Positions 4,775 through 60,276 of a stretch of DNA of 64,000 nucleotides are shown piece after piece (the stretch's first letter is position 1; every line of letters starts with the position of its first letter). Location of the stretch: assembly GCA_021613535.1 (NCBI GenBank), contig CP075493.1, positions 14,322,001-14,386,000 of the forward strand, written 5' to 3'. Source of the stretch: Adineta vaga. Lineage: Eukaryota > Animalia > Rotifera. The position numbers were made by a program, and so were the translations under genes. A model generated the notes under the pieces. The model saw nothing but the letters and a program-made list of their open reading frames with translations, was not told where the DNA came from and did no database searches.

Positions 4775-5749
4775 TGATTTCTTTTCTAAAATTGAAATAT
4801 TAATAATACTTTACCACTGCGAACACATTCTTTCAATATAATCACGCATATTTTTTGCAAACATGTATGTTATACTGATCCAGAAAAGAAAAACGAAATC
4901 AATACTAAAATAAGAGCAAAGTGTATAAAGAAGGACAGTTATATGAGAATAGACAGCTGCCTTTTTTCTTTTCATATTGAATGCATACTATATACTATAT
5001 AACCCACAAGGCCAACAATCGAAGATAGGATATCTATCAGTGACATGAAAAAAGAATATATAAAAAGAGGTGTTCTTTATGTTGTAGAGTTTGGTTAATC
5101 GACAGCTAACATCTGCAAGATCATCATACTCGAAAGATATAATATTTTTATGTATTCTAATACAAAATATCTGAATAACGAGAGTGTTGTTTAATTGTTT
5201 CTACGTTTGACACTCCTTCAAATATAGTGCGGAGTCGCATATGATAGTCTTTCGTTGTGAATAAAATATTCTTTCATGAGATCGGTGAATAACACATTTG
5301 GTTTTGTAAAAAGAGGTAACAACAAATATGATTATTTATTGATGACAATTATTTTTAAACAAAGTTGCATCAGTTTTAGAGTTTATAATAGCATACAAAG
5401 AAGTTTCATCTCGATCGAATGATTTGTATTCAAAGACAAATGCATATCTGAGAGTATCAAAACATGTATTTTGATTTTTAAGAAATAAATATTGCGAATT
5501 TTGAGAAAATATAGAGAAGACATCTTACAAAAGAATCAGTTTTTAGCTTTGGCTTAACAGTGAAATATTCTCGAAATAATACTTGATCACTTACGTTGCC
5601 ATATAGAATATAACGAGCTGAAACAATAACTTCACGATTTTTACTCTATTTTGAATCTTTGTCGTATAAAAATATTCATTCGGTTGCATAATAGAAATTT
5701 TTTTATACTATATCTTAGAATTACGGAATACATATATAAACAAAAATAG

Positions 5750-13802: not shown

Positions 13803-16800
13803 TTAAGCAAAAACATCGACACTATAACGATCAAGTGAAATTTCTTCCAGAATTTTACTCGCTTCTTCTTCATCAATTTGTTTCATTTCTGCAATGATCT
13901 TAATAAAACATGTTTTCACTGATGCACCTATTTTTCTAGCACTACCACATGTATAAAATCGTGCACCATTAGTATACAGTTTAGCAATCTCATTTCTATC
14001 TTCCCAAAGTAAATCTTGAACATATTTTTTATCATTAGGATGTTGACGAGAGAAAACATGTCGAATCTCTACGGCACCAAGTTTCGACCATTTATTCAAT
14101 TCATCTGAATACAAAAATTCTTCATGTGTTCGACATCCATAATAAAGAACCGTGCGTCCAATCTCTCTTCCACATACTAATTGAGCTGCTCTTTCTTGAA
14201 TAAATCCTCGAAATGGTGCTATTCCAGTTCCAGCAGCAATCATTACAATTGGTACTTTCGTATCTTCAGGTGGATGAAATCTAACATTACTTGCCCGAAC
14301 ACTACAACTGATTCGATCCGATGGTTTTAAATTTGAGAGATAATTTGAAGCAACACCATAGTATCGTCCAGATCCACTTAATGCTGGAGTATTAAGAACA
14401 TCAATTGTAAGTGTGACCGTACTAGAACTCCATAAAGGTGAAGATGAAATACTATATTGACGAATACGTAGTGCAGGAAGCATTCGAAGATATTGTGGAA
14501 ATGATAGTTCACATGACTGATATTGTTCAAGTATATCTAATATATTGATACGTTTACTAAGAATTTCATTTTCATAGGAATCTCCGATAAGATCTCTAAG
14601 ATTTATTTGTTCTTTTTCATTTTTACATAATTCGGCAAGAGTTTCAATTTGTTTCTTACTAATTGGTTGAGATAATTCAACATAACAATTTAATATATCA
14701 AATACACTAATTGGATAATTTGTTGGAAAGAATGTATCTGTTACAGAAACAATTTTCACGTACGTATCACCAGATAGACTAAATCGTTTAATAACTCGAG
14801 AAACAATTTCAATTGGATTTGTTGGTAAAACAGCAAGATAATCTCCAGTTCGATAAGTTTGTCCTTTGGGTAATTGAATTTCTAAATGTCGTTTCATAGG
14901 TGCAATATCATTAGCTTCAATTAAAATTTTATTCTGTAGAACAGTTCCAAAATCTGTTGTTTGTCCAAGATTTCTTGTTGGATTAACAATTTCAATTGAA
15001 AGTTTTTCATCACTAATCACATTTTGATCGCCAGTCTCTTTTCGCAATGCTCGAAACAGATGTTCTTTCCAAGTTTCAAATGCACCAAGAAAATCACCTG
15101 CAGCATCACCAGCACCACGTTCAATAATTCGTCTGCCACCAACAGTTTCAATCATTTGATCAATGTAAATCGGGATTTTTTGATACGTATCAATCCAATC
15201 ATGATGACCAGCTCCAAACACAGCATAATCAATGTTTAATGTAGGTTTAGATTCAAGATAAGTTACAAATTGTTTAGCATTTTCGCAAGGTTTACCTTCA
15301 TAAGAAGCAGTTATGATTATAATAGGTTGATCATTAGGAAGACGTTCGACAGCCGAATCCAGAGTAGTTACTGTCGCATTATAACCATAGAGAGGTGCTT
15401 CTGAAGCTAATGTATCTGCAAAAGATTGACAAGAACCAGAATTACTACCAAAAAGAATTGACATTGGTCGAAGATATTCTCTATTGACTTGTGCTTTGGT
15501 TTTTTCTGGTATTTTTTCTGATGATTTAATATTAGTATTAAGTATAGTTCCTACTTGTTGACGTGATCGAACTCGCATTTTGAATCCATCTGGTTTAACA
15601 GTTAATGTTTCTTTAATACGAAGATCATACGTTGGATCAACAAATTCAATATGAAAATGTTTAAGTATAAGTGCAAGAGCCAGAAGACTTTCTTGCCATG
15701 CAAATGGACGACCAATACAAGCTCTTTGACCATTACCAAATGGTTTCCATGAATTGGGTAGAAGCTTTTCGAATCCACCATTTAACATTCGTTCTGGAAG
15801 AAATTCTTCTGGTTTATCCCATACTGTTGGATCGCGATGTAATTGAGACAAAAGAACAAAGATCACATCGTTTTTGTGAACTAAATAACCGCCAGGCAGC
15901 ATAATATCATCTACTTTCGATTCTAAAGTAAATCCTGGTGCTGTCGGTTGTAAACGAAGTGTTTCCTTTAATATCGCATCAATATATTTTAATTTACTTA
16001 GTGTATCAACTGTAATTTCATTATACGAATCGACTTCTGCTTGTGCTTTTTGTAAAGCATGTGGATTTTTTAAAAGATAATAAATAGTAAATGAAAGAAG
16101 TCCAGATGTTGTTTCATGGCCAGCAATCAAAAAAGTAACCATTTGATAACGAATATTTTCATCAGATAATTGATAACCAGTTTCTGGATCTTTGCCATTT
16201 ATCATTCGATTGAGTAAATCATTCGCATCATTTGGATGTTCTCGTCTTTCCCTAACGATGTCATCACATATCTTATGGAGATATGCAATATCATCTGTGT
16301 AGCGGCGCGCAGTGTTTATCATCAGTAGATTTTGCAAAAAAAATCGTTCAGTACGTTTACCACTTTCAATAAGAACATTCACCATAGCATCAACAAAACG
16401 ATGCTTTCCTTGCTTATAGAAACTATTAAATCGATAATTAAAACTACATAAAGCAATTGTATCTAAAGTTAAGCGTGTTAAATTATCACAAACATCAATT
16501 TCTTCACCAGCAAATCGTTCCCATCGAAGAATCAGTTGTGAACAAATGTCCATCATAGCCGGAAACATATCTCGAATTGCTTGTGGTCCGAAAGCAGGCA
16601 TCAAAATTTTATGTGCAAGTTTCCAATTGATTTCTGACGAATATGCAGTAAAGAGTCCATCTCCAGCTACAGTTCTTAATTCCGCCAGGGCTTGACTGAT
16701 ATTTTTATCGAATTTTGATTCGTCACATACGAAATTGACTAATTCTTGACTAGATATGACCACAATATTTGTACTAAAAATAGCCACTCGATAAATATCA

Positions 16801-16910
16801 CCGTAAAGATTTTGCAGTCTTTTCAATGAGTCTATGCCATGATCAGGATCTAGCTCTTTTAGATTTCCAATCCAGAATATTTTTTGTGGCTGTGGAATTA
16901 ATTTGCTCAT
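13803..16910 (-). CDS. Self-sufficient cytochrome P450/NADPH-P450 reductase fusion (CYP102/BM3- or CYP505-like)
   Basis: Intronless 1035 aa. P450 motifs AGHETTS, ETLR, FLPER and FGNGQRACIG (heme Cys). FMN loop FGSNSGS, FAD motif RQYSISSSP, NADPH motif GTGIAPFRGF, C-terminal RYSVDVFA. Confidence 0.95.
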   Translation of the reverse strand: MSKLIPQPQKIFWIGNLKELDPDHGIDSLKRLQNLYGDIYRVAIFSTNIVVISSQELVNFVCDESKFDKNISQALAELRTVAGDGLFTAYSSEINWKLAHKILMPAFGPQAIRDMFPAMMDICSQLILRWERFAGEEIDVCDNLTRLTLDTIALCSFNYRFNSFYKQGKHRFVDAMVNVLIESGKRTERFFLQNLLMINTARRYTDDIAYLHKICDDIVRERREHPNDANDLLNRMINGKDPETGYQLSDENIRYQMVTFLIAGHETTSGLLSFTIYYLLKNPHALQKAQAEVDSYNEITVDTLSKLKYIDAILKETLRLQPTAPGFTLESKVDDIMLPGGYLVHKNDVIFVLLSQLHRDPTVWDKPEEFLPERMLNGGFEKLLPNSWKPFGNGQRACIGRPFAWQESLLALALILKHFHIEFVDPTYDLRIKETLTVKPDGFKMRVRSRQQVGTILNTNIKSSEKIPEKTKAQVNREYLRPMSILFGSNSGSCQSFADTLASEAPLYGYNATVTTLDSAVERLPNDQPIIIITASYEGKPCENAKQFVTYLESKPTLNIDYAVFGAGHHDWIDTYQKIPIYIDQMIETVGGRRIIERGAGDAAGDFLGAFETWKEHLFRALRKETGDQNVISDEKLSIEIVNPTRNLGQTTDFGTVLQNKILIEANDIAPMKRHLEIQLPKGQTYRTGDYLAVLPTNPIEIVSRVIKRFSLSGDTYVKIVSVTDTFFPTNYPISVFDILNCYVELSQPISKKQIETLAELCKNEKEQINLRDLIGDSYENEILSKRINILDILEQYQSCELSFPQYLRMLPALRIRQYSISSSPLWSSSTVTLTIDVLNTPALSGSGRYYGVASNYLSNLKPSDRISCSVRASNVRFHPPEDTKVPIVMIAAGTGIAPFRGFIQERAAQLVCGREIGRTVLYYGCRTHEEFLYSDELNKWSKLGAVEIRHVFSRQHPNDKKYVQDLLWEDRNEIAKLYTNGARFYTCGSARKIGASVKTCFIKIIAEMKQIDEEEASKILEEISLDRYSVDVFA

Positions 16911-25839: not shown

Positions 25840-28312
25840 ATGTTCAAGTCCCTATCAATTTGTGACTACATCAACTTATGAAAAATCAAACTTTCTAAAC
25901 ACTGCAGACTATCTAGAAAGTTGTTAACAACAACGATCTTTTCACATACTTTTCACGAGAAACAAGTTCGAAGACATCATGTCATACTGAGAATCAGCGT
26001 GAAAACAAATTGTATTATTCAATTATACAATAACCTATTTTCAATAATTATAAGACGATGTAGAAATCCTGAAAAAAAGGATATACCAGCATTTCACGGA
26101 ATACACTCATTCTATTCTATATCTTCCACTATGCCTTCTACACCCTGACCATCTCCTGATCTTCACGATTCAAGGTCAAACAACGTTTCAGGTACATGCT
26201 GAACGTGTTAATCGATAATCAAATTGAAAAGCACTCTTACACTCATAATACCATAAATGACTGAAACTGAACGTTCTCTATTATGATAACATCACTCGAT
26301 CCACATAAGCCTATATCTCAATTCTTCATCACTGCAGAGATCCATCAGAAAAGCATTTTCTAAAAACTCCACCTTCATTTATTGAGTTTTGATCACTTAT
26401 TTCGGCTCTATATTTTTAGTTTATGCAGAGATAAAACACACCTCATCTATCATCACTAATGGTCGCCAAAACAATCAAACTCAGAATAACTTTATTTCAC
26501 ATATTCGTTCCCATTTACTAGTCACTTATCGTAACATTGGTTCCATATACGCGAAAATGGAAAACTATTCGAGTGCACTTGAAAATTATAACAAATCACT
26601 CGAGATTTATCAGAAGAATCTTCCTTCCAATCATCCAGACTTAGCCAGTAGTTACAACAACATCGGTTTAGTGTATTACAAGATGGGTGATCATTTGAGA
26701 GCTCTTGAAAACTACAACAAAGCACTCGAAATCAAACAAAAGTCTCTTCCTTCCGATCATTCAAGCTTAGCCAGTAGTTACAACAATATCGGTTTAGTGT
26801 ATTATGCTACGGGTGATCATTCGAGAGCTCTTGAAAACTACAACAAAGCACTAGAAATTCAACAGACGTCTCTTCCTTCCAATCATCCAGATTTAGCCAG
26901 TAGTTACAACAACATTGGTTTAGTGTATCATGCTACGGGTGAATATTCGAGAGCTCTTGAAAACTACAACAACGCACTTGAAATTGAGCAAAAGTCTCTT
27001 CCTTCCAATCATCCAGACTTAGCCGGTAGTTACAACAACATCGGTTTAGTGTGTGAAGGTACGGGTGAATATCCGAGAGCTCTTGAAAACTACAACAAAG
27101 CACTAGAAATTCAACAGACGTCTCTTCCTTCCAATCATCCAGATTTAGCCAGTAGTTACAACAACATTGATTTAGTGTATCATGCTACGGGTGAATATTC
27201 GAGAGCTCTTGAAAACTACAACAACGCACTTGAAATTGAGCAAAAGTCTCTTCCTTCCAATCATCCAGACTTAGCCAGTAGTTACAACAACATCGGTTTA
27301 GTGTGTGAAGATGGGCGATTATTCGAGAGCTCTTGAAAACTACAACAAGGCACTCGAAATTCAACAAAAATCTCTTCCTTCTGATCATCCAGCCTTAGCC
27401 ACTAGTTACAACAACATTGGTTCAGTGTATTACAAGATGGGCGATTATTCGAGAGCTCTTGAAAACTACAACAAGGCACTCGAAATTCAACAGAAGTCTC
27501 TTCCTTCCGATCATCCAGACTTAGCCGGTAGTTATAACAACATCGGTTTACTATACCATGACATGAGTGATTATTCGCGAGCTCTGGAAAACTACAACAA
27601 AGCACTCGAAATTCAACAGAAGTCTCTTCCTTCCAATCATCCAGACTTAGCTGGTAGTTACAACAACATCGGTTTAGTGTATCACAAGATGAGTGATCAT
27701 TCGAGAGCTGTTGAAAACTACAACAAAGCACTCGAAATTCAACAGAAGTCTCTTCCTTCCAATCATCCAGACTTAGCCAGTAGTTAGAACAATATCGGTG
27801 TAGTGTATCATGACATGAGTGATCATTCGAGAGCTCTCGAAAATTACAACAAAGCACTAGAAATTAAGCAAAAGTCTCTTCCTTCCAATCATCCAGACTT
27901 AGCCAGTAGTTACAACAATATCGGTGTAGTGTGTCATGACATGAGTGATCATTCGAGAGCTCTTGAAAACTACAACAAAGCACTCGAAATTAAGCAAAAG
28001 TCTCTTTCTTCCGATCATTCAAGCTTAGCCGCCACCTACAACAACATCGGTTTACTATATCATGACATGAGTGATTATTCGCGAGCTCTCAAAAACTACA
28101 ACAAAGCACTGGAAATTCAACAGACGTCTCTTCCTTCCAATCATCCAGACTTAGCCAGTAGTTACAACAACATCGGTTTACTGTATTATGATATGGGTGA
28201 TCATTCGGTAACTCTAGAATACTTCAAAAAAACAGCGGATAATAACGAGGAAATGTTTGTAAAAGATCAATTATCTCTTGTTTCTAGTGTTGAAAAAGAC
28301 GTTTCGCTGTGA
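25840..28312 (+). pseudogene. Disrupted TPR-array gene; 5' part decayed, no ART domain detectable
   Basis: Frameshift at ~27305-27311 (unit 2 nt short). TAG replaces the consensus TAC at 27785-27787. Upstream sequence holds only degenerate TPR-like remnants; 5' boundary approximate. Confidence 0.75.
26521..28230 (+). repeat. Tandem array of about 14 units of 126 bp (42-aa TPR)
   Basis: Near-identical units ...tctcttccttccaatcatccagacttagccagtagttacaacaacatcggttta...gagagctcttgaaaactacaacaaagcact... Confidence 0.95.
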
Positions 28313-31061: not shown

Positions 31062-33648
31062 TCAGAAGTGAGTCATTTTATGAGAACGTCGTCGCACCAA
31101 AATAAATAACAAGATAATCCCACCAAATAAGAGCACACCTCCAATGACAGATGGAACAATTACTGTTGCTAACGAAAGTTTATCCATTGATGAACTACAT
31201 GGCGTCTCTTGTACGATATTACTCGCACAATAGTACCACGTTTTTGTATTTACGATGGAATCACGAGTCAACTGTGCAGTCATTTGATTTTGTCGTAGTT
31301 GTGACGATGGATCACTGAGCTGTTGGCTAATACCTTGATAAAGTGTTTGTGCACTGAGAGTAGGTGTATTAAAAAGTCGAATGTAAGCAGATGCAAGTGT
31401 ACGAGCTCGACGAAAAGTTATTTCAATTTGTTGTGCACGTGCTGCAGGAAAACACTGAAGGAAAATCTGCAAGAGTGCACGTGCTGTATCATTTACACTC
31501 TGATTAATGTTATAATCATAATTTCCACTTAAAGTAAATTCAACGTATGAATCATTTAACAAAGTGACTTGTGTTTGAGTAGTAAAACTTTGTGTGCCGT
31601 TGTATGACATTGAAGTATCAGAGGTGAGAACAACTGAAGTTTGAGATATAGTAATAGTAGTAGTAGTTAATATAGAAATCTGAGTAGTTATCGATGTGTT
31701 CGGAGCACTTCGATTCATCGTTGAAATTGGCAGTACAGACGAAGTACTCAGACTCATTGTGGTGATTGATGGCATAGATGAAGTACCTATGGTTATTGTA
31801 GTAGTTGATGATACGGACGAAGAGCTTGTGATCATTGTAGAAGTAGACAACGTAGAATTTAATGTTACTGTAGTAGTAGTTGTTGATGTTGGCAGCATGG
31901 ATGTATTACTCATGGTTATTGTGGTAGTTAGCAATACAGATGAAATACTAGAGGTCATTGTAGAAGTAGACGTTAAAGTATTGGCTGGTACTGTAGTGGT
32001 TATCAACGTTGACTGTATAGGTGAGGTACTAAGAGTTGTTGTGGAGACAGTTTCCGTGGAACTCAATGTAATTGTAGTTGTTGATGGTACGAATGAGACA
32101 GTTGAAGTTATTGTAGTTGAAGACGGTGAAGGACTTGAAGTGACGATAGTGGTGCTTGATGACATAGGTGAGATGCTTGAAGTCATTGTCTGAGTCGATA
32201 ATATGTATGGTAAGCATGGCGATAACGATGGGAAGCTTGTTGTTATGGTAAATGTTGATGGTGTGGTCATAGTAAATGTCGACGGCGTTGTTATAGTGAT
32301 TGTAGTCATGGTAAAAGTTGATGGTGTCGTTAGCGTGATTGTGGTCATAGTAAAGATTGATGGCATCGTTACGGTGACTGTGGTCAAAGTGAACGTTGAC
32401 GGTATGGTTACAGTGAGTGTAGTCATGGTAAAAGTTGTTGGTATCGTTACGGTAAATGTGGTCATAGTAAAGGTCAATGGTGTTGCGACGGTGAATGTGG
32501 TCATAGTGAATGTCGATGGTGTAGTTACAGTGAATGTCGACGGTGTCGTTACAGTGATTGTAGTCATGGTAAAAGCTGATGGTGTCGTTACCGTGATTGT
32601 AGTCATAGTAAAGATTGATGGCATCGTTATCGTGACTGTAGTTACAGAAAACGTCGACGAAATGTATGTGAAGCATGGTGTCATCGTATCTGTTGGAGAT
32701 ATAGAGGATGTGCCTGGAGTATTAGTCATCGTATCCTGTTCGGTTGAACGCAGTTTAGGAACCATTATAATAGAGCTTTGCACAGCTACCGATGATTTTG
32801 CTCCTCCTATTAACATGAATACATTTTATTTTATTATAGTGAAACAAATAGTATGATCTAGTCTGATTCTATATTGATCTTCTAAAATTCTCAAGCTTTT
32901 CGGCTCTAATTCGCATAACAACAAACGTTTCCATTTTGTTTTATATTGAAACATACCGATGGTTCGTCCTTCTGCAATGTTTGAAGGGCAATTTCCGTTG
33001 TCATTATCATGAAGCAATTTTCCGCTGGCCTACAGAGAAAAGTCATCTTATTCATTCAACACATGAACACTTACATCATAAAGACAAGTTGCACTGCGAA
33101 AAGTACACAATACTGTTCCATCATTTGCGGAGACTGAATTTGTCAAAATAGCGCCTTGTGCATCCTTGCTTGGACAAACTTCCAATGATTGTGCTGTAAA
33201 CAAGAAGCCAAAATCATGCATTATTACTGTGCCAAGAAAATTTCAACAGAAAACTCACCACAGCCACCGATTCTTGTTGGGCAATAACCTTGATTATCGT
33301 CTTTCAAAATTTGTCCATTGCTCTGAAAATAAGTTTTTTTTTAAATAGGACGTCAACTTGTTGGAGACTAAATAAAAAATTACTCGATCATAGATACAAT
33401 AATAGTGTAGATTATTGTGATGATATGAGCATGCTGTTGTTTTACCATCTAGTGAATTTTCTATAAATGTCAGTAATTTTGGTGGAGAAGACGTATCGTA
33501 TTCTGCACATCGACATGCCAATGCTAAAGAAAGAAATCAACGACATCTGGAAGAAGACTGTTACAGCAACAATACACTTACTTGATTTTTTAATACAAAT
33601 GAAGAGTATATAGAAAAAAGGAAGTAAACTTGCGAACACTCCTTTCAT
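31062..33648 (-). CDS. Type I membrane mucin-like protein: signal peptide, two Cys-rich domains, Thr/Ser stalk, SEA-like domain, TM, short tail; six exons
   Basis: Exons 33648-33582, 33523-33384, 33322-33259, 33193-33075, 33029-32957 and 32806-31062; all introns GT-AG and phase-consistent. TM LATVIVPSVIGGVLLFGGIILLFILV followed by RRR. Confidence 0.82.
32230..32640 (-). repeat. Coding minisatellite of ~39-bp units (TTITVTTPSTFTM) in the mucin stalk
   Basis: About 10 degenerate 13-aa units, some shortened. Confidence 0.85.
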
Positions 33649-34351: not shown

Positions 34352-35521
34352 CTATATCAATCCTTGATAAGCAATTGGATGGATATCCTTATTTTCATCC
34401 TTTAAAAATACAATTATCCAATTTTCAATTTGCCGTGGAAATTTTACTTTAATTCGTCTTTCTGGCATCAGTTCAAGTGCTTTTGGTTCTGGCGTTTTCT
34501 TTTTATGAATCTCCAAATTGAAATAGAATTCAGTTTCATTCGAAACTTGTAATACATGATCCAAGCAAAGACGGACATAAATAATGGCTTCTCTAGTAGG
34601 TATATCGTTTGCTTCTGCCAGAGGAGCATTCAGCGTGAAATAAATATAATCGGCTACAGCCTTATGTTCATCGAGAGGAAATCCATTTTTCGAAATTTCT
34701 ATGGCTAGCTCATTTGTTGTTATATGATAAGCAACAATAACTTTTCCATCAATAACAGGCGGCAGAGGTATTTTCGGCAGTAATGTAGCAGAATGATACA
34801 AAATTGTATGAGCAAGGCCTGTTGAATCACATTGACATCCAAGTTCAGGACTTGTGATATCAAATAGTTTCACTCGCTCTGTATAAATCATATTATAAGG
34901 AACATATTTAAGAAAACCTCGAGCTCGTTGTCGAAGTCGGTCAGACTCGTTATTGAATGGTCGAAAGTTCCAAAATACATGAAAATGAAGCATCTCAATA
35001 AGTAATGCTGCCAATGAAAGAATTAAAAAGACACTTGACAGGACAGTATAAGGCACACAAATTGGATTGAATTTAGTTGCACACAATGCACCTAAAATAA
35101 AAGCTGTGAAGCGCATACAAAAACATACAACCAGAATAGCTAAGCGAGTCAGGTGAATACCAGCTGGATGTTCATGATAACATTTGCAATCGAAGCACGT
35201 TACCATACTGAATCTTAAACATGTTCGAGGATAAAGATACGTTCGAAGATAATGCTTATCTGGAACTTCTCTTGGGCATAAACTTATACAAAAATAGACG
35301 AGATTTGATAATATGAGTGGAACTGAAGCTATGCATTCGAGAATAAATATTATCGCAGAAAAAGTTGCATTTGTTTCGCGTACTGTCTTGTTAGATAAAT
35401 CGATGCAAATAACAATAAATCGAATAATAAATGTCAATAATTCAACAGCATAGAAGATCTTTAACGCACTGTATCGTTTTTCATGTCTACGACAATCATT
35501 CAAATATTTGCAGCAAGACAT
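34352..35521 (-). CDS. 4-TM protein with a degenerate Gig2/PARP-like ART domain (probable pseudoenzyme); paralog of 35660..36880
   Basis: ATG at 35521 (MSCCK). TM region aligns with the neighbour. The C-terminal AYHITT..AIEISKNGF..YIYFT..IIYVRL..QIENWII lacks the GMLGxG loop and the Glu before the last strand. Confidence 0.7.
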   Translation of the reverse strand: MSCCKYLNDCRRHEKRYSALKIFYAVELLTFIIRFIVICIDLSNKTVRETNATFSAIIFILECIASVPLILSNLVYFCISLCPREVPDKHYLRTYLYPRTCLRFSMVTCFDCKCYHEHPAGIHLTRLAILVVCFCMRFTAFILGALCATKFNPICVPYTVLSSVFLILSLAALLIEMLHFHVFWNFRPFNNESDRLRQRARGFLKYVPYNMIYTERVKLFDITSPELGCQCDSTGLAHTILYHSATLLPKIPLPPVIDGKVIVAYHITTNELAIEISKNGFPLDEHKAVADYIYFTLNAPLAEANDIPTREAIIYVRLCLDHVLQVSNETEFYFNLEIHKKKTPEPKALELMPERRIKVKFPRQIENWIIVFLKDENKDIHPIAYQGLI

Positions 35522-35659
35522 TCTTGAATACAAAATTTTCGTTTGTTTAAAATACGTGTGCAAACAAAAATGCTCTCATTTTCTCCCGTCTATGCTTTTT
35601 TTTCTCGGAATAGAAATCAATTCACTTGCATACACAACTTGTACAATTTGTTGTTGACG

Positions 35660-36880
35660 ATGAAAGAAACAACCAAGACCAATGTTGAAGTTCGTCAAGG
35701 ATGTGTTAAACTGAATGTAAGAAATGATCATCAACGATACAAATATATGGTTCGATTTCATGCTCTTGATGGACTTCTATATATTATTCGGCTGATCATT
35801 ATATGCACAGATTTATCAGCTGTATCTCTTCAAACTGAAACCACTTTAGGTATATTTTTAGGTCTAATTTTTCTTTTCGACTTTTTCGGTGGCTTTCTTA
35901 TCTTGCTTGCTAATATATTCTACAAACTCATAACATACCTTATCCCAATAATGTACGAAACAGATGCTGATGATATTTCTTATTTACCACGATATACTCT
36001 TCTGCGGTTGTCAGCATTGACATGTATCGCTTGTGGTTACTATGACGACCACCCACGAGCAGTTCTCGCCACACGGGTTATCATTCTTGTTGTATGTTAC
36101 ATTCTTCGTTTTTCAGCATTCGTTATTAGCGCAGTATGTGCCAATCGCTATCCGCCACGAGGCATCGCCTTTGCTGTTTTCGCAGGACTTTCTTTAGTTC
36201 CATCTGCAATTACTATATTTCTTGAGTATAATCATTATCGACGTCTCTGGAATTATTTCCCAGATGATGATCCAAAAGCAAAGCGTGATGAACGACACAA
36301 ACATTTCGTTCCTTCTTCACTTATAAACGATCAACGAACCAGTAGTTGGGGTGGATCATTATGTAAAAATGATAAATATTGTCGATCACGAAATTTACTT
36401 CACGTATTGATGTATCATTCTGGTTCCAAACAGTATCGTCGAGATGATGGAACAATGATCGGTTTTCATCAGACGGCTCCAAACAGTGCTATCGAAATAT
36501 CAAAAGGTGGTTTCACTATTCCGACAAAAAAAGGAATGTTAGGTGCAGGTACTTATTTCGCTACCTGCATTGATCATACTCAATTCAAAGCCGTACATTA
36601 TGGAACATATATATGTGCTTTGGTTGATCCAGGGAGCGAACTCTATGTGACAACCAGTCGAAAGGATAAAAAAGCCATAGAAGAAAATTATGGAACTACA
36701 GTATATTTTCAACATCGAAAAAACAAGGACGAGTTTTGTGTTCGTGAAGACGATCAAATCAAAGAATGGATCATGGTAGTTGATCAAGATGAAACTCGTA
36801 AAGGAGAAAATGATGGCGATCCTAAAGATACTATTAAAGATCGCTTCTATGCGGATGTTTACGTTGGATGTATTTTCTAA
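35660..36880 (+). CDS. 4-TM + PBZ-like Zn finger + Gig2/PARP-like (H-Y-E) ADP-ribosyltransferase domain protein
   Basis: Four hydrophobic helices; CKNDKYCRSRNLLHVLMYH; GFHQTAPNSAIEISKGGF...GMLGAGTYFA...YICALVDPG...DEFCVREDDQIKEWI. Alternative in-frame ATG at 35570. Confidence 0.78.
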   Translation: MKETTKTNVEVRQGCVKLNVRNDHQRYKYMVRFHALDGLLYIIRLIIICTDLSAVSLQTETTLGIFLGLIFLFDFFGGFLILLANIFYKLITYLIPIMYETDADDISYLPRYTLLRLSALTCIACGYYDDHPRAVLATRVIILVVCYILRFSAFVISAVCANRYPPRGIAFAVFAGLSLVPSAITIFLEYNHYRRLWNYFPDDDPKAKRDERHKHFVPSSLINDQRTSSWGGSLCKNDKYCRSRNLLHVLMYHSGSKQYRRDDGTMIGFHQTAPNSAIEISKGGFTIPTKKGMLGAGTYFATCIDHTQFKAVHYGTYICALVDPGSELYVTTSRKDKKAIEENYGTTVYFQHRKNKDEFCVREDDQIKEWIMVVDQDETRKGENDGDPKDTIKDRFYADVYVGCIF

Positions 36881-36915
36881 ATGCGAGATTATTAGAATTT
36901 ATTCCAAATGATCAA

Positions 36916-38320
36916 TCAGTTCGTTTTAGTTAACATCTTAGCACGCCAACATTGATTTCCTCTTTTCATATTTTCTGCTGAGTGTCTTGATTTATTCAAT
37001 ATCAATCGACGCCAATAACTAAATCTTAGCTTCTCCATTTGATACACGCTTGGACTTTTCATTTTTTTCATTGCAATCTCTTTGAGTTTAGTACGAAGAA
37101 AGTGTTCATTGAATTCATGAGTATCATTCAGTACGATGATAGGTAGATCGAGATAAAGAGAAGAGAGTGTTGAATCATAGACAATAGGAATAACATCGAG
37201 ATAAAGTGCTTCCCATGTTCGATGACAATCAAGTCCATTACCTCGCGGAGATAGCCAATACGGATATTGACGATTACGAGTATAAATATGTAATAGATTT
37301 GAGATATTTGCACCATCTGATTTTTCTATACATGTAACAAACGTTAAATTCGAAGAAGATCGACGACACAAAGTCTGCCAAATGAGTAGTCGAAATCTTG
37401 TTGGATCAGTGAATTGTTCAAAGTTAAGAAGGAAGTTGTGGATGATAATGGCCAGCTAACACTTGATGTGTGATATCACGAGGATGTATATAGTGTTGAG
37501 GTTCATCTGGACGACTAAATACTGATGGAAGTGTATGATTTGAATACTGTTGATGTACGTATCGAATGGCACTAGCCATTTCATGACAATTGAGACCTAA
37601 ACGAATAAAACAACTTAAACGAGTATGTAATCAATGATCGTAACTATTGTTATCATGAGAATATATTATCTGTGTAGCTTTTTCTGAAGTCTCATGGTTG
37701 AATACTTCTTGTAGTGTTGCTTAAAAGTCAACAGTTCTCACAAGAGTACCTGATTCATACCGATAGATCTTACCAATGGGAATCGGAGTAAACTTATTCG
37801 ATTGTGAAGATTGAATGTCAGCATTTTGACCAAACCAATGAATAATCTTGGAATTCGTATCATGAAGAAAAGAGAGAAATCTTCCTGGTGATGATGCATC
37901 ACTTTGACCTGTAATCAAAACGAAGTTGTTAATCAAATAAGGATAAGAATCACGAAAAAAAAATGGAAGAGAATCTGTTTTCACATATATAATACTCCCA
38001 GCTGGTAGACAATATGAGATAAAATACCCATAGGTTGTAACTTCTATATCATTTGACGAAACATAAACCCAATCAGCTAAATTACGAAAATTCTGTGGAC
38101 AAACGAATTCCGAATAATGTTCAATGAAACGATGTCTATCGAATGTCAGTCGATCGTGACTGAGAGTGCTTTCATATGAACATAATTCAAAGCAAATCAA
38201 TGATTTGTATGAAAACAGAGAATAAGCTATAATTACAAACATGAATAAAATCAAAAGCAGGATTCGTCTTAATCTAAGGCGATGTTGATACCCAGCATTA
38301 ATTGTATATCGTTTAGCCAT
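36916..38320 (-). pseudogene. Exostosin/GT47-like type II membrane glycosyltransferase with one frameshift (pseudogene or assembly error)
   Basis: N-terminal TM; intron 37597-37773; SPRGNGLDCHRTWEALYLDVIPIV motif. One extra base near 37430 (CAA CTT CCT TCT TAA; removing one C gives QLLLNF). Confidence 0.75.
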
Positions 38321-45622: not shown

Positions 45623-48175
45623 TTAGCACTTCTTTTTTACACGTGCCAGATTGTCTTTATATGGTTGAAGATCACAGCGTTCTGGAAACAACGAATGTTC
45701 AGCGTTTCGTAGAGCACGTTCAAAGAATAAGCGTGCTTTCAGATAATCACGCATATTCTCATAGACAGCAGCAATATTGCTGTAAGAGCTACCTATATCA
45801 GGATGATTGTTCGGAAGTGATTGTTGACGAATAGCTAAGGCTTTTTCGTGAAATTCAAGCGCTTTATCATTCTTGCCCATACTACAATACACGTTACCAA
45901 TATTGTTGTAAGCAGAAGCTAAATCAGGATGATTGGGCATAAGTGCTCGCTCACTGATGTTAAGAGCTTTTTGATAATATGATAATGCTTTCTTAGGGTC
46001 ATCCATACTACGATACACGTTACCGATATAATTGTAACAAGAAGCAAAATCTGGATGATCAGGTTCGAGTGATCGTTCATAAATTTTCAAAGCCTTTTCA
46101 TGATATGAAAGTGATTTCGTATACTCGCCCATTCTTCGATATACACTACCAATATTGTTGTAGGACTTAGCTAGATCAGGATGATTGAATGATAATGACT
46201 GCTTGCAAATACGAAGATCTTTCTCATAATAGGAAAGTGCCTTTTCGAAATTACCCATGCTTTGGTAAACGCTACCAATGTTGTTGTAAGACGACGCCAA
46301 ATCTGGATGATTGGGAGGTAACGATTGTTGACTAATTGCAAAATCTCTCTCATAATAGGAAAGTGCTTTGTCGAAATTGCCCATACTTTGGTATACACTA
46401 CCGATATTATTGTAAGACGAGGCCAAATCAGGATGATTGGATGGAAGTGCTTCCTCACTAATTTCTAAAGCTTTTTCATGAAATGAAAGAGCTTTCGTAT
46501 AATCACTCATGTTATAATACGCCAAACCGATGTTATTATATGTTTTGGCCAAATCAGGATGATATGCATTAACTGATTGTTTTAGAATTCGAAGAGCATC
46601 TTGGTGATTTTTAAGGGCATTTGAGTAATTACCCATACGAAGATATGCACTACCCATTCGATTATATACATTAGCTAGATTAATAGGTTCAGATGAAGAT
46701 GTTTGTTGATAGATAGTAAGCACTTTTGTACAGAATGTGATTGTCTCTTGGTATTTTCCTTGACTATACTTGGCCAAACTGAGTCGCTCATAGATGGGCG
46801 CTCTTTCACTATCGTCTGTTGTTTGACGTAAGAGAGTTTGATAGATTTCTTCAGCTGTATTCGCTTGACCCATTCTTAGTAGCAGTGCACCTAGTCTAGA
46901 CCATGCTTCTTGACCAGGATAACTTTCCTGGCGCATGTGGCAACTCAATTCAAATAATTCTGGATCATTGTCACTCGTAAGTGCCAGGTGAACTTCATAT
47001 AGACGATTGTTGTCAGACATTTGTTTAATGTTATTGATACGAAAGATTGTATGCATAGAAAATAAGATTTCGTTTTCATCCTCATGTGCGCTAACATTGG
47101 TAATAGATGCAAAAGGCGTAGTTGATCGTACAGGATCTATTTGCATAACAAAAAGAATTCCTATGCAGTCAGGATTCGAGATAGCGTCCTCTGCAAAAGT
47201 AAGTGCAGTTAATCGATCGGTACTAGTGGATAAAAAATTATTGAATGAAATTAGACCGTCCTTGCTTTGTTGCATTTGTTCGAAATCATCTGACGAGAAT
47301 CCTTGTCCACGATAGACGGTAAAAGATGTTTTCGAAGATTTATAAACGAACTGTTCCATATACAACTGCTCGATATGTTGATGAAGGTCTTTGATAAAGA
47401 AACCCATCTTTATAATGATGTCTCCATCCATCAATTGCAAAGCTTTGTTAAGCATAGGATATAAAAAACACTGGTATGTGTACCACCATATAGCTTTTTC
47501 TTTTCGATAAGTTTGTTCCAGTCGTTTAACACGTGCAGTTTCTTCCTCATTTGGTGAGAAAACTTCTCGACAGTAGTTGATATATTGTTGTCGATGAGTA
47601 GAATCGAATTCAATAGTAAGAATAATTTCTTTGAAAATTTGTGTATACATAAAAGTAGGATTCAATTGATCTATACGTCTATCAGCTGCCACAAAACTAA
47701 TAGGCATAGCATTCTGTTCGACTTGGCGAACTATTTGTTTGACGATCTCACAGATTCGTGATATCTCTGCATAAACACCCTTAATTTTTGGCCACGTTTT
47801 AATCCAGTGTTCATGTCGATATGGATCATTAGAAAAGATAAAAATTGAATCCACTTGAGACATATCGTGTACTTGAGGCACGACGTGTTGACAAAGCGAA
47901 CTGGATATAACCATGCATGCTTTGTTCTTATCAATGGTATGAAGAAATTCGATGCACGAATCACTTGTTGTAAATGGTTCAACATTGTTTATCACATGTT
48001 TTATTTGTGTCATGATATTTCCATACTCTTCATTTTTCTCATCAGCATTACTATCCAACCAGATAAGAAGAGTATTTTGTGACTTTCGAATATTAGTTCG
48101 TTGACGAGAAGCAGCAACAGCAGCAGCATTCGTTGTACTAGAAGGATTGTTTTCTACAACATTAGTTTTGCTCAT
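45623..48175 (-). CDS. ART-TPR protein (R-S-E class), paralog of 300..3104
   Basis: ATG at 48175; LLIWLD N-terminal domain; VYRGQG, FLSTS and EDENEILF; about 9-10 TPR repeats (HPDLASSYNNIG). Confidence 0.88.
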   Translation of the reverse strand: MSKTNVVENNPSSTTNAAAVAASRQRTNIRKSQNTLLIWLDSNADEKNEEYGNIMTQIKHVINNVEPFTTSDSCIEFLHTIDKNKACMVISSSLCQHVVPQVHDMSQVDSIFIFSNDPYRHEHWIKTWPKIKGVYAEISRICEIVKQIVRQVEQNAMPISFVAADRRIDQLNPTFMYTQIFKEIILTIEFDSTHRQQYINYCREVFSPNEEETARVKRLEQTYRKEKAIWWYTYQCFLYPMLNKALQLMDGDIIIKMGFFIKDLHQHIEQLYMEQFVYKSSKTSFTVYRGQGFSSDDFEQMQQSKDGLISFNNFLSTSTDRLTALTFAEDAISNPDCIGILFVMQIDPVRSTTPFASITNVSAHEDENEILFSMHTIFRINNIKQMSDNNRLYEVHLALTSDNDPELFELSCHMRQESYPGQEAWSRLGALLLRMGQANTAEEIYQTLLRQTTDDSERAPIYERLSLAKYSQGKYQETITFCTKVLTIYQQTSSSEPINLANVYNRMGSAYLRMGNYSNALKNHQDALRILKQSVNAYHPDLAKTYNNIGLAYYNMSDYTKALSFHEKALEISEEALPSNHPDLASSYNNIGSVYQSMGNFDKALSYYERDFAISQQSLPPNHPDLASSYNNIGSVYQSMGNFEKALSYYEKDLRICKQSLSFNHPDLAKSYNNIGSVYRRMGEYTKSLSYHEKALKIYERSLEPDHPDFASCYNYIGNVYRSMDDPKKALSYYQKALNISERALMPNHPDLASAYNNIGNVYCSMGKNDKALEFHEKALAIRQQSLPNNHPDIGSSYSNIAAVYENMRDYLKARLFFERALRNAEHSLFPERCDLQPYKDNLARVKKKC

Positions 48176-50409: not shown

Positions 50410-53400
50410 TTAGTCTCTTTTCGTTAATTGTTCTGCAGTTTCACGCGACAATGTACTTGGAGGATCGAACGTAGAATCGGCTATAGCACTAACTACTGAT
50501 GTATCTTCTTGACGATTGTTTTCGACCGGAACTGCACCAATAGGCGTTTGAAGTTGTTATTGCGATAGCTGTTCACTAATGAATTAAAGTGCCGCTGTAG
50601 CAGCTTGTGCATGATCACATAAGACATATAAGAAAGTTTCATCATCTTGTTTTCTTTTCGAAGGATTCGGATTAATCTGAAGTTCAAACTGGTTATCGAT
50701 TTCCGAATATGTATAAGCATATTTATCTGTATTCGTATAAATAATTAATGACATTTTGTGATATTGCTTAGTGCCAATGGAATGCCTAACTCGATTTCTT
50801 AATTGTTTGACGGTGTCTTGATGATCAATATTCGGAGTAAAAGCGTGAATTTTCACTTGTGTCCGACGAACATTGTGCAAATAAGCGAGTAAATCATTAT
50901 TTGGCGATTGTAATTGATTCGAGCACGATAAACTAGAATACACTAGATGAGTCTCCACAGTTTCTTCTGGTGAACTTTCTTGATCCTCTAAAATAACATT
51001 ATATCCATGTCGAATATCGTTTGTTATTGAATCAGGAAAAATAAATTCGGAACGAATACGTCTCCAATTTTCATAAATAAATTCGAATTCAGATTGATTA
51101 TTATTTTCATTGAACAATTGACAATATTGTTCTTTGATATTGCTTTTTATATTTTCCTCTTGCCTTTCATATGTGGGATTATGGTTGGCATGAATACAAA
51201 TAAATACAACACGTAATATTCCGTATTCATTTTTCCATTTAATATCATGCGATGAATTTGAATGGATTTTATAATTCTCCAACAATGGATTTCGCACGGA
51301 AAATTTGTTATTATATTGGGCCCGGAGGCGTCTGATCACGTCATGATGTATAATAACCGTATGAATTAAAGAATCATCATCGGGAAGACTATCATTATCA
51401 GATAATTTTGGCATTTGACCATTCATATCCCAAAAGCAGAAATTTTGCGTAGCTTGGAAAATACTCTTGAGTTGTTTCACTGACTTTATCGTCGATGATG
51501 AAATCGCACGACAATATTCAGCAGTCAATGATTGATGACCCGGATGTCCAGCTAAGCATTGATCAATTGGCCAAATTCCATCATCATCTGTTGCAAGAAT
51601 AATTGGTGCGTCAATATCGATCAATGCATCAAAACAATGTGATTGGGCATGAGTACCTTGCCGAATTGTTTGTCCAAGTAGATACTCATTACTTGTCAGA
51701 TTGACTTCGAATGCAATTGTCTTGAACAAAAAATTTGCATGCTCACGCATTTCTGCAAGAAGTACAGATGATTTTCGATGTCTAGATTGACTAATGTTTT
51801 GACCTAAGATTCGATCGAAAGCGATGCCATGACCAATTCGTATGCCATATTTGAGTTCTTGTTGAAGAAATCGTAAACAACGAAAAACGATATAAATGTG
51901 TGCAATAAATAATCGATAAGCTGAATTATTATCATCGGCAAATATTACATTTTCACCACAATGAATACGTACACCAAAGTTTTTATTACCTCCTTCTTTC
52001 TCTCGTTCATTTTTGATAAAATTAATAAATGGCCGTGCTACAAATGGGCAATAAGGATAACCTAATTCATCTCCAAATAAATCAAATCCAACTATCCATT
52101 GAAAAAAATATTTAGTTGATTCGCTGACTTTTTTGAGTTTTTCCAATTGTTTCAAACAAGGACTAAATGGATTTATTGTTGCTTGAGCAGCGTCGGACGC
52201 TGATGAATTTCTTTCATTTTTGCTCTTGATAATCTCGTTAATCATTAAAATAATTGCTTGTGCTGGAGTAACATATAAAAAGTGAATTGCTGACTTTATA
52301 TTCGTCGGAAGTGGTGCTTCTACATTTCAGCGATCGAAACCTGCCAAAAATTTGTAAGTGAATTTAAGTAAATCGACGGAATTATTTTCACGATCCGGTG
52401 ACATCGCTCCTTTAAAAGCAAATTCCAAATGAGGAAAATGTCCGCTGAGAACGATCTGTGAGAAAGAACTATAAGCATCGCTTGGTGTATATACGTTCTG
52501 TTGAGCATCTTTTTGAATATTTTGAGTATTTGTTTCATCATAAACTCGAACACTTCGAAGCACATCGAATACCCATGGTCGACAAAGATCATTGGCACTG
52601 ACAGAAAATTCACAATAACGAACAAGTGGTAAACAAGTGGTACTATGTTCAATAATATATCCAATGAGCGTAGCTAAAATATCCAAACGTTGAGAATAAA
52701 TTGAATCTTTAAGAGCAAATCGGCGGGGATAAAATTCGGGGTGCAAATTTTCCATAAAATGTATGTAAATCAACATGATGTGTTTGTGTTCCATCAGGTT
52801 TACACATTGTAAAAGCATTAATGATATAATTGCGTGCTTGCTTTTTGACTTCATTGGGCGCGTTCTGATCAATAGTGATAAGATCACGTAATTGTCCAAC
52901 TTGTAGACCGTAAATAATTTCAAATTTCTGTTCACGAGCACTGAAAATAATCCAATCGCGAAAATTGACACTGGATGACTCTGAATAAAAACCTAGTTTT
53001 TCAGCAATATCCAATTCGATTAGGTCACGATTTGTCTCTTGATTGATACCAAGGCTTTTACCAAGATCAGTCAATTTCAAGACGACATCATACGAGAAAT
53101 CATCGCGAAAACTTAAGTCACGATGTTTCATTTCCTGGTACAGCTCGTCTGTTGTCAAGTGACTGAATGATGAACTGAATTCATTAATCTTCTTGTCGGT
53201 AGATGAATCTTTTTCCGTTGGTGGAACATCGTTTTTCACTAAATCGTTAAAAGCTGCTGCTGCAGTTCTTCCATCAACGAAACCACCCTTTTCCTGATTA
53301 GCCCAAACAAGTGGACATAGCTCTTCACGCAGTCGAGTATTCTCTTCAATTAGAAATGTTTCATTTTTTGGCATAATAAATGGATTCATTAATACTGTGT

Positions 53401-53515
53401 CGACCCAAAATCTACTATTTCCTATTCCAAGTAAATGAGTATGAAGATCATACAATTGATGTTGTCGTTTAAGTACCATCAATGGTGATGTTTGATATTC
53501 ATTCGATGTTGCCAT
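50410..53515 (-). pseudogene. Large (~1000 aa) adenosine/AMP-deaminase-like amidohydrolase, disrupted
   Basis: DLHTHL, GFDLFGDE, RIHCGE, RIGHG, EVNLTSN and ATDDDG motifs in order. One extra C in GCACCCCGAA (~52740); in-frame TGA at 52327-52329; TAA at 50584 and 50557 with the frame otherwise open to 50410. Confidence 0.78.
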
Positions 53516-57830: not shown

Positions 57831-58505
57831 ATGCTTCGTACTCCACGTGTTTTATTCTATCATGGCCTTGAATCTGGAGTCAAAGGTCGAAAATCGCTCT
57901 ATCTAGCAGAACATTTTCCTAATTCTTATACTCCGAATCTCAAACCTTACTACTTACTGCCACTGTCTCTTTGGAAAGCGATCGTAGCAATCCATCGATT
58001 TAAACCAGATATTATTGTTGGAAGTAGTTTCGGTGGATTTGTTGCTATGCTTTTACTTCAAAAACGAGCTTGGAATGGACACACAGTTTTGTTGGCGCCT
58101 GCAACCGGTCTTCTATTCAAGAAAAGACTTTGGCTACCCGAAGATTATAGGAAAAATATTGTTATTGTAGCTGGAAAAAACGATACAACTGTACCTTTAG
58201 ATGGATTAGCATCATTACAACGACTGTCACGAGATAATGTACGATTTCTAGTGGTTGAAGACGATCATCGACTAAATCAAGCAATGATAGAACAGAATCA
58301 ACTAAGAGATTTAATCAACAACACTTATGAATCAACAGTAACTACTGATACGATGATCAACAACTATTTTGATTGTATAAAGTTATGGCTGACGTGTATG
58401 CTTTCTGTAATCATCTCATTTATTCGAGAACCATTTACTCTTTACAACACTACCAAACGGCTGCGCAGACTGAAAAAGGAAATCATCGAAACAGACGAAC
58501 GTTAA
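57831..58505 (+). CDS. Small alpha/beta-hydrolase (YqiA/UPF0227-like esterase) with a hydrophobic C-terminal tail, copy 1
   Basis: FYHGLES oxyanion motif, GSSFGG nucleophile, GKNDTTVP (Asp) and EDDHRL (His). ATG 57831 is where similarity with copy 2 begins. Confidence 0.85.
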   Translation: MLRTPRVLFYHGLESGVKGRKSLYLAEHFPNSYTPNLKPYYLLPLSLWKAIVAIHRFKPDIIVGSSFGGFVAMLLLQKRAWNGHTVLLAPATGLLFKKRLWLPEDYRKNIVIVAGKNDTTVPLDGLASLQRLSRDNVRFLVVEDDHRLNQAMIEQNQLRDLINNTYESTVTTDTMINNYFDCIKLWLTCMLSVIISFIREPFTLYNTTKRLRRLKKEIIETDER

Positions 58506-59610
58506 ATATAACTTTGTTAATAAATGATATCTAGATGTTACGAAGAGTGTATTTTTTTGTGTCTTTATTAAAATATTCCTATTAAAGAATGTGAAACTGA
58601 AAGTAAGAAGGATAGAAAAATGATCCGATATGAAAGAATAAACGACAAAAATAGTGGTTTTGACTAATATATTGGGCTGAACTCTTCACTTTTTTTTAGT
58701 GACAGCCATTTTCAAGTAATGACAGTGTAATAAAATCGATGCGACGCAGCGATTTCCACGAGCGTCATTCTTTAGCTCATATATATGTTATCACACGATC
58801 ACAGATTTTGAAAAAACTGAATTTTAAAACAGACACAAAATTAGAAATAGTTATAGAAAAAAGAAACAACTGACAACGAGTGAAGCGAGACGATTAGAAT
58901 TCTTCGTTCATATGATGAAGTTGCTCACTACAGTTTTTGTTAAATCGTTTTTTTCGTATCAATTTTAACCATGGCAAACTAGCGACACTCTTTGCTAAAG
59001 AAAAGAAACTTTAAAAAATGAGATAAAATAGAAATAAGCACAATGTTTATTAGAATATGAATTTTTTTTTAATTGTTTTGTAATTATGAGGGAATTGTAG
59101 GAATCGGTGATGAAATGTCATTAAAACATGCCGATTAATCACCGATTCTTTAGATTGACGTGATTCTGCTATGTAATGAAAAGAGAATTCTGCCTAGTCG
59201 CACCTTTTTGTAATCTATCGAGAACGTCATATGTAATATCATTTCACTCGCTTTTGCACTTCTTCATATTCATGGCTAAGAAGCGTATTTCGAATTTGAA
59301 TATCCATTATGTCTATATATTATCAATCATCTGGAACTTATATTTTATGGATGACGATGAGATTACACAAGAAATATCAATTACACGTACTGTCATGGCT
59401 GCTCGCCATATCATCGGATGAGTCATGTATGTATGTAACGAGTATATATAAGCGTTGCACTTTTTCTTTTGAGTATAGATTATGTTCTCTCTTATTAGTC
59501 ACGAATAAAGGTTTTCACGCGTGTTCATATCTTATACTTTTTACTACTTGATTTTCTGCTCATCATCTTGTTTCTCTCCTGTTATGTTTTATAGATTAAT
59601 CTTATTCATT

Positions 59611-60276
59611 ATGCTTCGTACTCCACGTGTTCTATATTTCCATGGTCTTGGGCCCGGTGTCAATAGTAAGAAATCACTCTATATAGCTGAGCATTTTCCT
59701 AATTCTTACATTCCCAACCTCAAACCTTACTACTTATTTCCACTGCTTGTTTGGAGAGCTATCATAGCAATCTATCATTTTAAACCGGATATTATTGTGG
59801 GAAATAGTTTCGGTGGATTTATAGCTATGCTTTTACTTCAAACACGCGTGTGGAATGGACACACAATTTTATTAGCACCCGCAACTGGTGTTCTGTTTAA
59901 GAAGAGACTCTGGCTACCAGAAAATGATAGGAAAAACATCGTTATTGTAGCTGGAAAAAATGATACAACTGTACCTTTCGACGCATTAGCACCATTACAA
60001 CGACTGTCACGAGATAATGTACGATTTCTAGTGGTTGAAGACGATCATCGATTAAATCAAGCAATGATAGAACAAAACCAACTAAGAGATTTAATCAACA
60101 ACACTTATGAATCAACAATAACTACTGATACGATGATCAACAACTATTTTGATTGTATAAAGTTATGGTTCATGTGTCTGCTGTCTGTAACGATCTCATA
60201 TATTGTAGAACCATTTACTCTTTTCAAAACAATGAATCGGTTGCGAAAACGAAGAAAAGAGAAGAGAAGAAATTGA
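59611..60276 (+). CDS. Small alpha/beta-hydrolase, tandem copy 2
   Basis: YFHGLG, GNSFGG, GKNDTTVP and EDDHRL; ATG lies 1780 bp downstream of copy 1. Confidence 0.85.
   Translation: MLRTPRVLYFHGLGPGVNSKKSLYIAEHFPNSYIPNLKPYYLFPLLVWRAIIAIYHFKPDIIVGNSFGGFIAMLLLQTRVWNGHTILLAPATGVLFKKRLWLPENDRKNIVIVAGKNDTTVPFDALAPLQRLSRDNVRFLVVEDDHRLNQAMIEQNQLRDLINNTYESTITTDTMINNYFDCIKLWFMCLLSVTISYIVEPFTLFKTMNRLRKRRKEKRRN

Follow-up and report, generated by a model that had tools for sequence, protein, structure and literature searches.

A 64,000-nucleotide stretch of contig CP075493.1 of the bdelloid rotifer Adineta vaga (assembly GCA_021613535.1, forward-strand positions 14,322,001 to 14,386,000; hereafter the window, whose numbering is used unless another locus is named) contains two divergently transcribed sister genes. 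Each encodes a protein predicted to combine a four-helix membrane bundle, a C-C-H-H (CCHH) motif and a PARP-fold ADP-ribosyltransferase (ART) domain. The plus-strand protein, P0001, is likely an NAD+-using membrane enzyme, and the minus-strand protein, P0002, is likely an inactive, co-expressed partner that would assemble with the enzyme and control it. We put the probability of this reading of the conserved head-to-head pair at about 0.6. The pair and its architecture are real and conserved, and apparently previously undescribed.

An initial examination of the window by a model without database searches (the sequence-only reading) had described two intronless divergent paralogs with 138 bp between their start codons, and this description is upheld. 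Both open reading frames (ORFs) are uninterrupted and intron-free, and a BLASTP comparison of P0001 and P0002 aligned the whole length of the proteins (404 columns, 27% identity, E 2e-41). An hhalign comparison of the plus and minus subfamilies gave a probability of 100 over 349 columns. An alternative in-frame ATG for the plus gene is present at 35570; the start was set at 35660 because the orthologues begin at that position. A tblastn search detected no third copy in the 64-kb window. The named full-length homologues all come from the bdelloid Didymodactylos carnosus.

Active-site residues of the two types

Residue counts were made on 61 mostly near-full-length sequences, hand-chosen from 176, which comprise 14 plus-type, 17 minus-type and 30 more distant proteins. 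The full H-GxG-Y-E set is found in all 14 plus-type proteins, in 23 of the 30 more distant ones and in none of the 17 minus-type proteins. Among the 54 sequences that were picked as active-type, the residues H, T, G, Y, F, K and E are invariant (54/54) despite sequence identities of about 20-30%. The plus copy has H270, G295, G297, Y299 and E358, confirming the H-Y-E set and Gly-rich loop assigned to it in the sequence-only reading.

In the minus type, the His column holds Tyr in 11 of the 17 proteins, His in five and Arg in one, and close orthologues differ at this column, P0002 and P0014 having H and P0020 having Y. Both GxG and the Glu are gone in 17/17, two of which are truncated before the Glu. 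The Glu column holds Arg or Lys in 12/17, and the Ala after YF is replaced by Thr, Asn, Ser or Met in 17/17. The sequence-only reading had stated that the minus copy lacks the Gly-rich loop and the catalytic Glu and keeps HIT. All of this is correct for the window; however, HIT fits the window lineage and not the subfamily, because His is kept in only five of the 17 minus-type proteins. Loss of the Glu alone proves no inactivity; what speaks for a pseudoenzyme is that GxG, the Ala, the Glu and, in most cases, the His are lost together. The inactive PARP13 is given as Y-Y-V, with Tyr at the His position, in the available portion of PMC9189837.

A Lys lies 11 residues after the motif Tyr in 53/53 proteins, with no conserved aromatic residue at +11 to +15 in the sequence register. 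The PARP HYYE tetrad includes a second, nicotinamide-stacking Tyr, according to the accessible parts of PMC7955679 and PMC9189837. The invariant Lys, K310 in the plus copy, may mark a different chemistry.

Predicted PARP fold

A Foldseek search using the AlphaFold model of the plus protein revealed 13 matches at E<=0.001, all of which are PARP catalytic domains, and a VIA comparison aligned model residues 195-380 with PARP1 (Z 9.6, root-mean-square deviation (rmsd) 3.1, 137 aligned). With the minus model, the top Foldseek rows were PARP14/15 at a probability of 1.00, with a best E of 0.011 and none reaching 0.001. A profile of the 54 active-type members matched PARP4 (E 4e-6), and the alignment placed LGxGxYF and DEF in register. 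At E<=0.05, 29 of the 54 matched Pfam PARP. Single-sequence searches of Pfam and PDB with the window proteins gave nothing significant, and tblastn found no phage match for the ART domain. A PARP-fold domain is predicted in both copies, as the sequence-only reading had proposed.

Membrane bundle and CCHH motif

Hydropathy analysis revealed four transmembrane (TM) segments each in P0001 and P0002, matching the four long helices of the AlphaFold models of the two proteins (mean predicted local distance difference test scores 81.2 and 77.5), and in both models the helices are followed by an alpha/beta domain. The four-TM region noticed in both copies from the letters alone is thus borne out. Loops 1 and 3, which are predicted to face outward, contain only about 4-10 residues, which makes a receptor for an extracellular ligand less likely. 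Lys and Arg are abundant at the N-terminus and after helix 4 (seven in each stretch of P0001). On this basis, the cytosolic side is predicted to hold both termini as well as the zinc-type motif and the ART domain.

Absent from the sequence-only reading is the CCHH motif, a putative zinc site that separates the bundle from the ART domain. Of its residues, C241, H248 and H253 are present in 61/61 aligned members and C235 in 55/61.

VIA matched synaptophysin to the two bundles (Z 11.5, rmsd 3.6, 136 aligned; and Z 12.7, rmsd 3.0, 129 aligned), tied with soluble bundles. The matches of synaptophysin, TTYH and tetraspanins are no better than those of soluble four-helix bundles. The bundle is not assignable to a family, the four-pass tetraspanin, MARVEL, claudin and MS4A families included, and no Pfam family was above the cut-off. 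A likeness of helices 3-4 and a W-x-Y/F-x-P motif (35990-36270, plus strand) to the coronavirus M protein was taken as probable hydrophobic bias. The M profile match was weak (E 0.015-0.028, and 4.5-5.4 in other searches), and no M protein appeared with the mixed alignment, in the top 50 VIA rows or, as far as the rows carry names, in the top 50 from a viral Foldseek search.

Recurrence and origin of the pair

A metagenome scan yielded three loci (L001, L002 and L003) from 107 pattern matches. The head-to-head pair could be read directly in two of the three fetched loci, L001 and L003, so the divergent arrangement of an active and an inactive copy, for whose recurrence the sequence-only reading had suggested looking, does recur. 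L002 says nothing on pairing, since its sequence breaks off 67 bp upstream of the plus gene. We infer three more pairs, P0006/P0014, P0005/P0020 and P0012-P0018/P0038 of D. carnosus, since the members of each have the same longest contig (101032, 5799 and 14798, respectively); the accessions of the D. carnosus pair are 18 apart in two assemblies.

The minus type forms one clade (support 100/98 in a 19-row tree; SH-aLRT 100 in a 61-row tree), nested in a larger group of plus and minus proteins. The plus and minus subtrees branch in similar order, and plus and minus identities correlate (rho 0.89, 15 comparisons of six pairs). The single minus clade and the similar branching order fit one old inverted duplication inherited as a unit, which probably took place early in bdelloid history.

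Constraint on the minus copy and expression

Identity to the closest orthologues is 65-68% for the minus copy and 73-75% for the plus copy. Among the variants listed, the minus copy has 11 nonsynonymous (N) and 11 synonymous (S) changes (pN/pS 0.29, p 0.004) and the plus copy has 7 N and 12 S (pN/pS 0.17). The minus copy is therefore conserved and not decaying; its neutral evolution would have been damaging to the proposal of the sequence-only reading. A pseudogene was ruled out by the intact ORFs across lineages and the conserved residues.

Four runs were guessed to be RNA, and three of them have contigs within both ORFs, at a depth of 2-5; these contigs give neither level nor strand. In the same three runs the introns of the flanking genes are skipped, and another guessed-RNA run has a contig that spans the spacer (35506-35656). 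Stretches of the window without contig cover (33736-34103 and 35392-35759) are not evidence.

Relation to known families

A profile search retrieved 728 representatives at E<=0.001. Among the best 150 of these 728, 76 are at least 300 aa long; 50 of the 76 have at least three TM segments, and 46 of the 76 also have the CCHH-to-ART arrangement. The best profile match without TM segments among the same 150 is a cluster with Astyanax Gig2e (P0083, E 5e-35, four repeats).

The domain shares with the ARTD/PARP catalytic domain (PARP1-4, tankyrases; PF00644) the predicted fold and the H-Y-E and GxGxYF residues, in register with PARP4. It differs in following four TM helices and a CCHH motif within one protein, in its minimal size (about 110-185 aa) and in having the invariant Lys instead of the second stacking Tyr, and the window proteins fall below Pfam detection. 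PARP13, also called ZAP, resembles most minus-type proteins (Y-Y-K/R) in having Tyr for the NAD+-binding His together with loss of the Glu. ZAP is a soluble RNA-binding protein, and we know of no paired active twin of the same architecture. Paired head-to-head plant NLRs are divergent, tightly linked paralogues of unequal function that act as sensor and executor. Their domains are unrelated to those of the window pair, which has no integrated decoy domain.

The Gig2 likeness proposed in the sequence-only reading held only for the start of the domain. Gig2 proteins of non-amniote vertebrates share the HxT...GF...GMLGxGxY domain start (40% identity over 40 aa, E 8e-5, Astyanax Gig2e), but the BLASTP likeness stops after 33-58 residues and does not reach the Gig2 C-terminal part. 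The Gig2 repeats have Y at +11 after the motif Tyr, and hence the second Tyr, where the window family has K; Gig2 also lacks the CCHH motif, whereas the window family has both this motif and four TM segments. Gig2 proteins consist of one to four repeated units, and the word transmembrane does not occur in the available text of PMC3617106; the family is interferon-induced, as far as the accessible parts of 10.1101/693333 and PMC3617106 go. The family resembles a minimal H-Y-E ART and falls outside Gig2.

The nearest described parallel in logic is PARP9/DTX3L (with PARP14), in which the genes lie head to head and one product is a catalytically inactive PARP. The portion of PMC11251020 at hand describes a bidirectional promoter for PARP9 and DTX3L and a complex of inactive PARP9 with DTX3L that regulates ADP-ribosylation. 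The partner there is an unrelated E3 ligase and the proteins are soluble and multidomain, whereas the window genes encode full-length paralogues that are integral to the membrane by prediction. Membrane-tied ARTs are known: PARP16 has a single C-terminal TM helix and H-Y-Y (part of PMC10450202), and a PARP12-like sponge protein of PARP clade 3 has an N-terminal TM region (part of PMC4245714), with no four-pass, CCHH-bearing or paired form described in the parts available. Our literature search, which left subscription journals and preprint supplements outside its scope, found no four-pass CCHH-bearing ART family and no paralogous active/inactive head-to-head pair. The earlier statement that no 4-TM ART had been described can therefore stand for the combination of four TM segments, CCHH motif and ART domain and for the paired form, but not for membrane-tied ARTs as such.

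Proposed function and alternatives

We propose that the plus protein would use NAD+ on the cytosolic face of the membrane, either for mono-ADP-ribosylation or for NAD+ cleavage. It is probably a mono-ART, because PARP3/4 retain H-Y-E and yet add single units (PMC9189837, in the part available). The minus protein would be made alongside the plus protein from the shared spacer, would assemble with it and would gate its activity, either by holding it off or as a requirement for it to assemble or to be trafficked. The trigger would arise in the cytosol or inside the membrane itself, because the outer loops are too short for a typical ligand-binding site. Prediction of a complex of the two full-length proteins, in which alignments were not used and the partner fold was uncertain, scored 0.00 twice and is no evidence either way.

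Several observations weigh against this reading. The second stacking Tyr is absent and replaced by Lys, which makes it questionable whether the plus copy is a protein ART of the classical kind. The window minus copy still has His and Tyr, and loss of the Glu alone does not inactivate PARPs: the accessible sections of PMC9189837 describe active H-Y-I/L/Y mono-ARTs and state that most human mono-ARTs lack the Glu. In the single deep run alone, the minus copy shows 9 N and 6 S (pN/pS 0.43, p 0.09). The RNA status of the runs is guessed, the depths are only 2-5, and DNA carry-over would also give a spacer-spanning contig. D. carnosus has at least four minus-type paralogues, three of which are of unsettled pairing. 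Linkage and orthology suffice to produce mirrored trees, which do not by themselves show co-evolution, and divergent genes may stay together because of a short spacer in the absence of any partnership.

In the strongest alternative, which we consider unlikely, the genes would be held together only by a shared short promoter after the inverted duplication, with the minus protein doing an independent job, for example as a scaffold or as a binder of a nucleotide or lipid head group. For the orientation, the recurrence and the mirrored trees, this would be as good an explanation as the preferred reading. It would also suit the minus type's own conserved residues, since 21 columns are conserved in at least 12 of the 17 proteins yet unlike the plus consensus, including the basic residue at the Glu position (12/17). 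However, the pair has outlasted changes around and within it: the three paired loci (the window, L001 and L003) each have a different gene downstream of the plus copy, and their spacers (138, 231 and 335 bp) lack sequence conservation, with no 7-mer or 8-mer common to all three. In L003, moreover, a second tandem copy of the whole pair (4955-6242) adjoins the intact one, with which it has 69-89% nucleotide identity in pieces, so the two genes were duplicated jointly. This second pair lacks its spacer and the 5' half of each gene at a single junction near 5690, through a deletion or an assembly artefact. The membrane halves are also as conserved as the ART halves in both types, which speaks against an independent role as well.

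Doubtful to a greater degree is an immune sensor and executor like the paired plant NLRs, in which the minus protein would be a decoy or guard hit by a pathogen factor, releasing the plus protein to use up NAD+ or to modify targets. The minus type evolves faster, with an identity below that of the plus type in 15 of 15 comparisons; yet the variants show purifying and not positive selection. The cluster of the best non-TM profile match includes fish Gig2e, which belongs to an interferon-induced family, but the Gig2 likeness is confined to about 40 residues. The family has many paralogues, and in L003 a gene that resembles one for a TRAF/MATH-domain adaptor (9284-9964, minus strand) ends 90 bp after the plus gene. 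Against an immune role, the searched supplement files of a bdelloid infection study (PMC11258130) contain only Gene Ontology-level ADP-ribosyl terms, some of them among the down-regulated genes, under gene identifiers that do not map to the pair's genes.

That both proteins are active, with the minus copy binding NAD+ or acting as a mono-ART whose specificity has changed (H-Y-x type), would accord with the His and Tyr kept in the window minus copy and two other minus-type proteins, with the retained fold and with the Glu-less human mono-ARTs of the available PMC9189837 text, but it is highly improbable given the replacement of His (12/17), GxG (17/17) and the Ala after YF (17/17) in the minus type, the free variation of the His position among close orthologues and the Tyr for His of the inactive PARP13 state described in the same text.

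The preferred reading, an active membrane enzyme with an inactive co-expressed partner, can tentatively be extended to an undescribed animal signalling module. A four-pass ART with a zinc-type linker and a Lys-for-Tyr site would be switched by its dead twin in a membrane complex. In response to a danger cue at the membrane, such as damage by desiccation or a breach by a pathogen, it would carry out ADP-ribosylation or deplete NAD+, as a sensor and executor built from PARP folds and kept head to head across bdelloids. We regard this extension as possible and well short of probable.

Feature positions and other genes in the window

Table 1. Features of the head-to-head pair in the window and of the directly read pairs in L001 and L003.
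Feature	Locus	Position	Strand	Details
Minus-type gene P0002	window	34352..35521	-	389 aa; 4-TM, CCHH-type motif, degenerate PARP-fold domain; predicted pseudoenzyme
Degenerate ART domain, minus copy	window	34406..34741	-	aa 261-372; H266, Y294, no GxG, R356 at Glu position
Putative zinc site, minus copy	window	34793..34837	-	C229/C231-H238-H243; spacing shortened in window lineage
Four-helix membrane bundle, minus copy	window	34970..35485	-	aa 13-184
Spacer between start codons	window	35522..35659	.	138 bp; putative bidirectional promoter and 5' untranslated regions
Plus-type gene P0001	window	35660..36880	+	406 aa; 4-TM, CCHH motif, PARP-fold domain with H-Y-E; predicted active enzyme
Four-helix membrane bundle, plus copy	window	35726..36250	+	aa 23-197; Cys-bearing loop between helices 2 and 3
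Putative zinc site, plus copy	window	36362..36418	+	C235-C241-H248-H253
ART domain, plus copy	window	36455..36781	+	aa 266-374; H270 (36467), G295/G297, Y299 (36554), T307, K310 (36587-36589), E358 (36731)
Minus-type gene	L001	504-1646
Plus-type gene	L001	1878-3074		spacer to minus-type gene 231 bp
Minus-type gene	L003	6454-7671
Plus-type gene	L003	8007-9194		spacer to minus-type gene 335 bp

Beyond the end of the minus gene lies a spliced gene for a Thr/Ser-rich, mucin-like membrane protein (31062-33600, minus strand), whose introns are visible in the run contigs. Convergent with the plus gene is a spliced gene (36900-38320, minus strand) that resembles one for an exostosin-type glycosyltransferase; contigs of the guessed-RNA runs extend from it into the 3' end of the plus gene.

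Tetratricopeptide-repeat genes are present at 300-3104 (plus strand), 5750-7657 (minus), 26557-28312 (plus) and 45623-48175 (minus), and three of them have an upstream R-S-E-like ART signature (YRGQ...STS...EREILF), presumably of a second, unrelated ART family that is common in the window. An intron-free gene of 1035 aa (13803-16910, minus strand) encodes what we take to be a P450-reductase fusion like bacterial and fungal CYP102/CYP505, and is a candidate for horizontal acquisition. Other ORFs include an alpha/beta-hydrolase-like tandem pair with a GSSFGG or GNSFGG motif (57831-58505 and 59584-60276, plus strand), overlapping pieces with adenosine/AMP-deaminase-like motifs (HTH, HCGE, TDD; 50584-53515, minus strand), apparently one gene split by frameshifts or introns, and an FG-GAP-like repeat ORF of 858 aa (60725-63301, minus strand).

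Implications

To our knowledge, the known PARP-type enzymes are soluble or anchored by one helix only. In a family of polytopic membrane ARTs, events in the membrane would be linked directly to NAD+ chemistry, and the Lys that replaces the stacking Tyr points to an unusual form of that chemistry. An active and an inactive twin in fixed orientation would offer a ready test of the regulation of active PARPs by pseudo-PARPs, which is unsettled even for PARP9 according to the available part of PMC9189837. In bdelloids, ADP-ribosylation is enriched among the genes over-expressed around desiccation and rehydration, as the accessible portion of PMC10809525 reports. For these animals, our finding would mean that some PARP-like genes encode membrane proteins and not DNA-repair enzymes.

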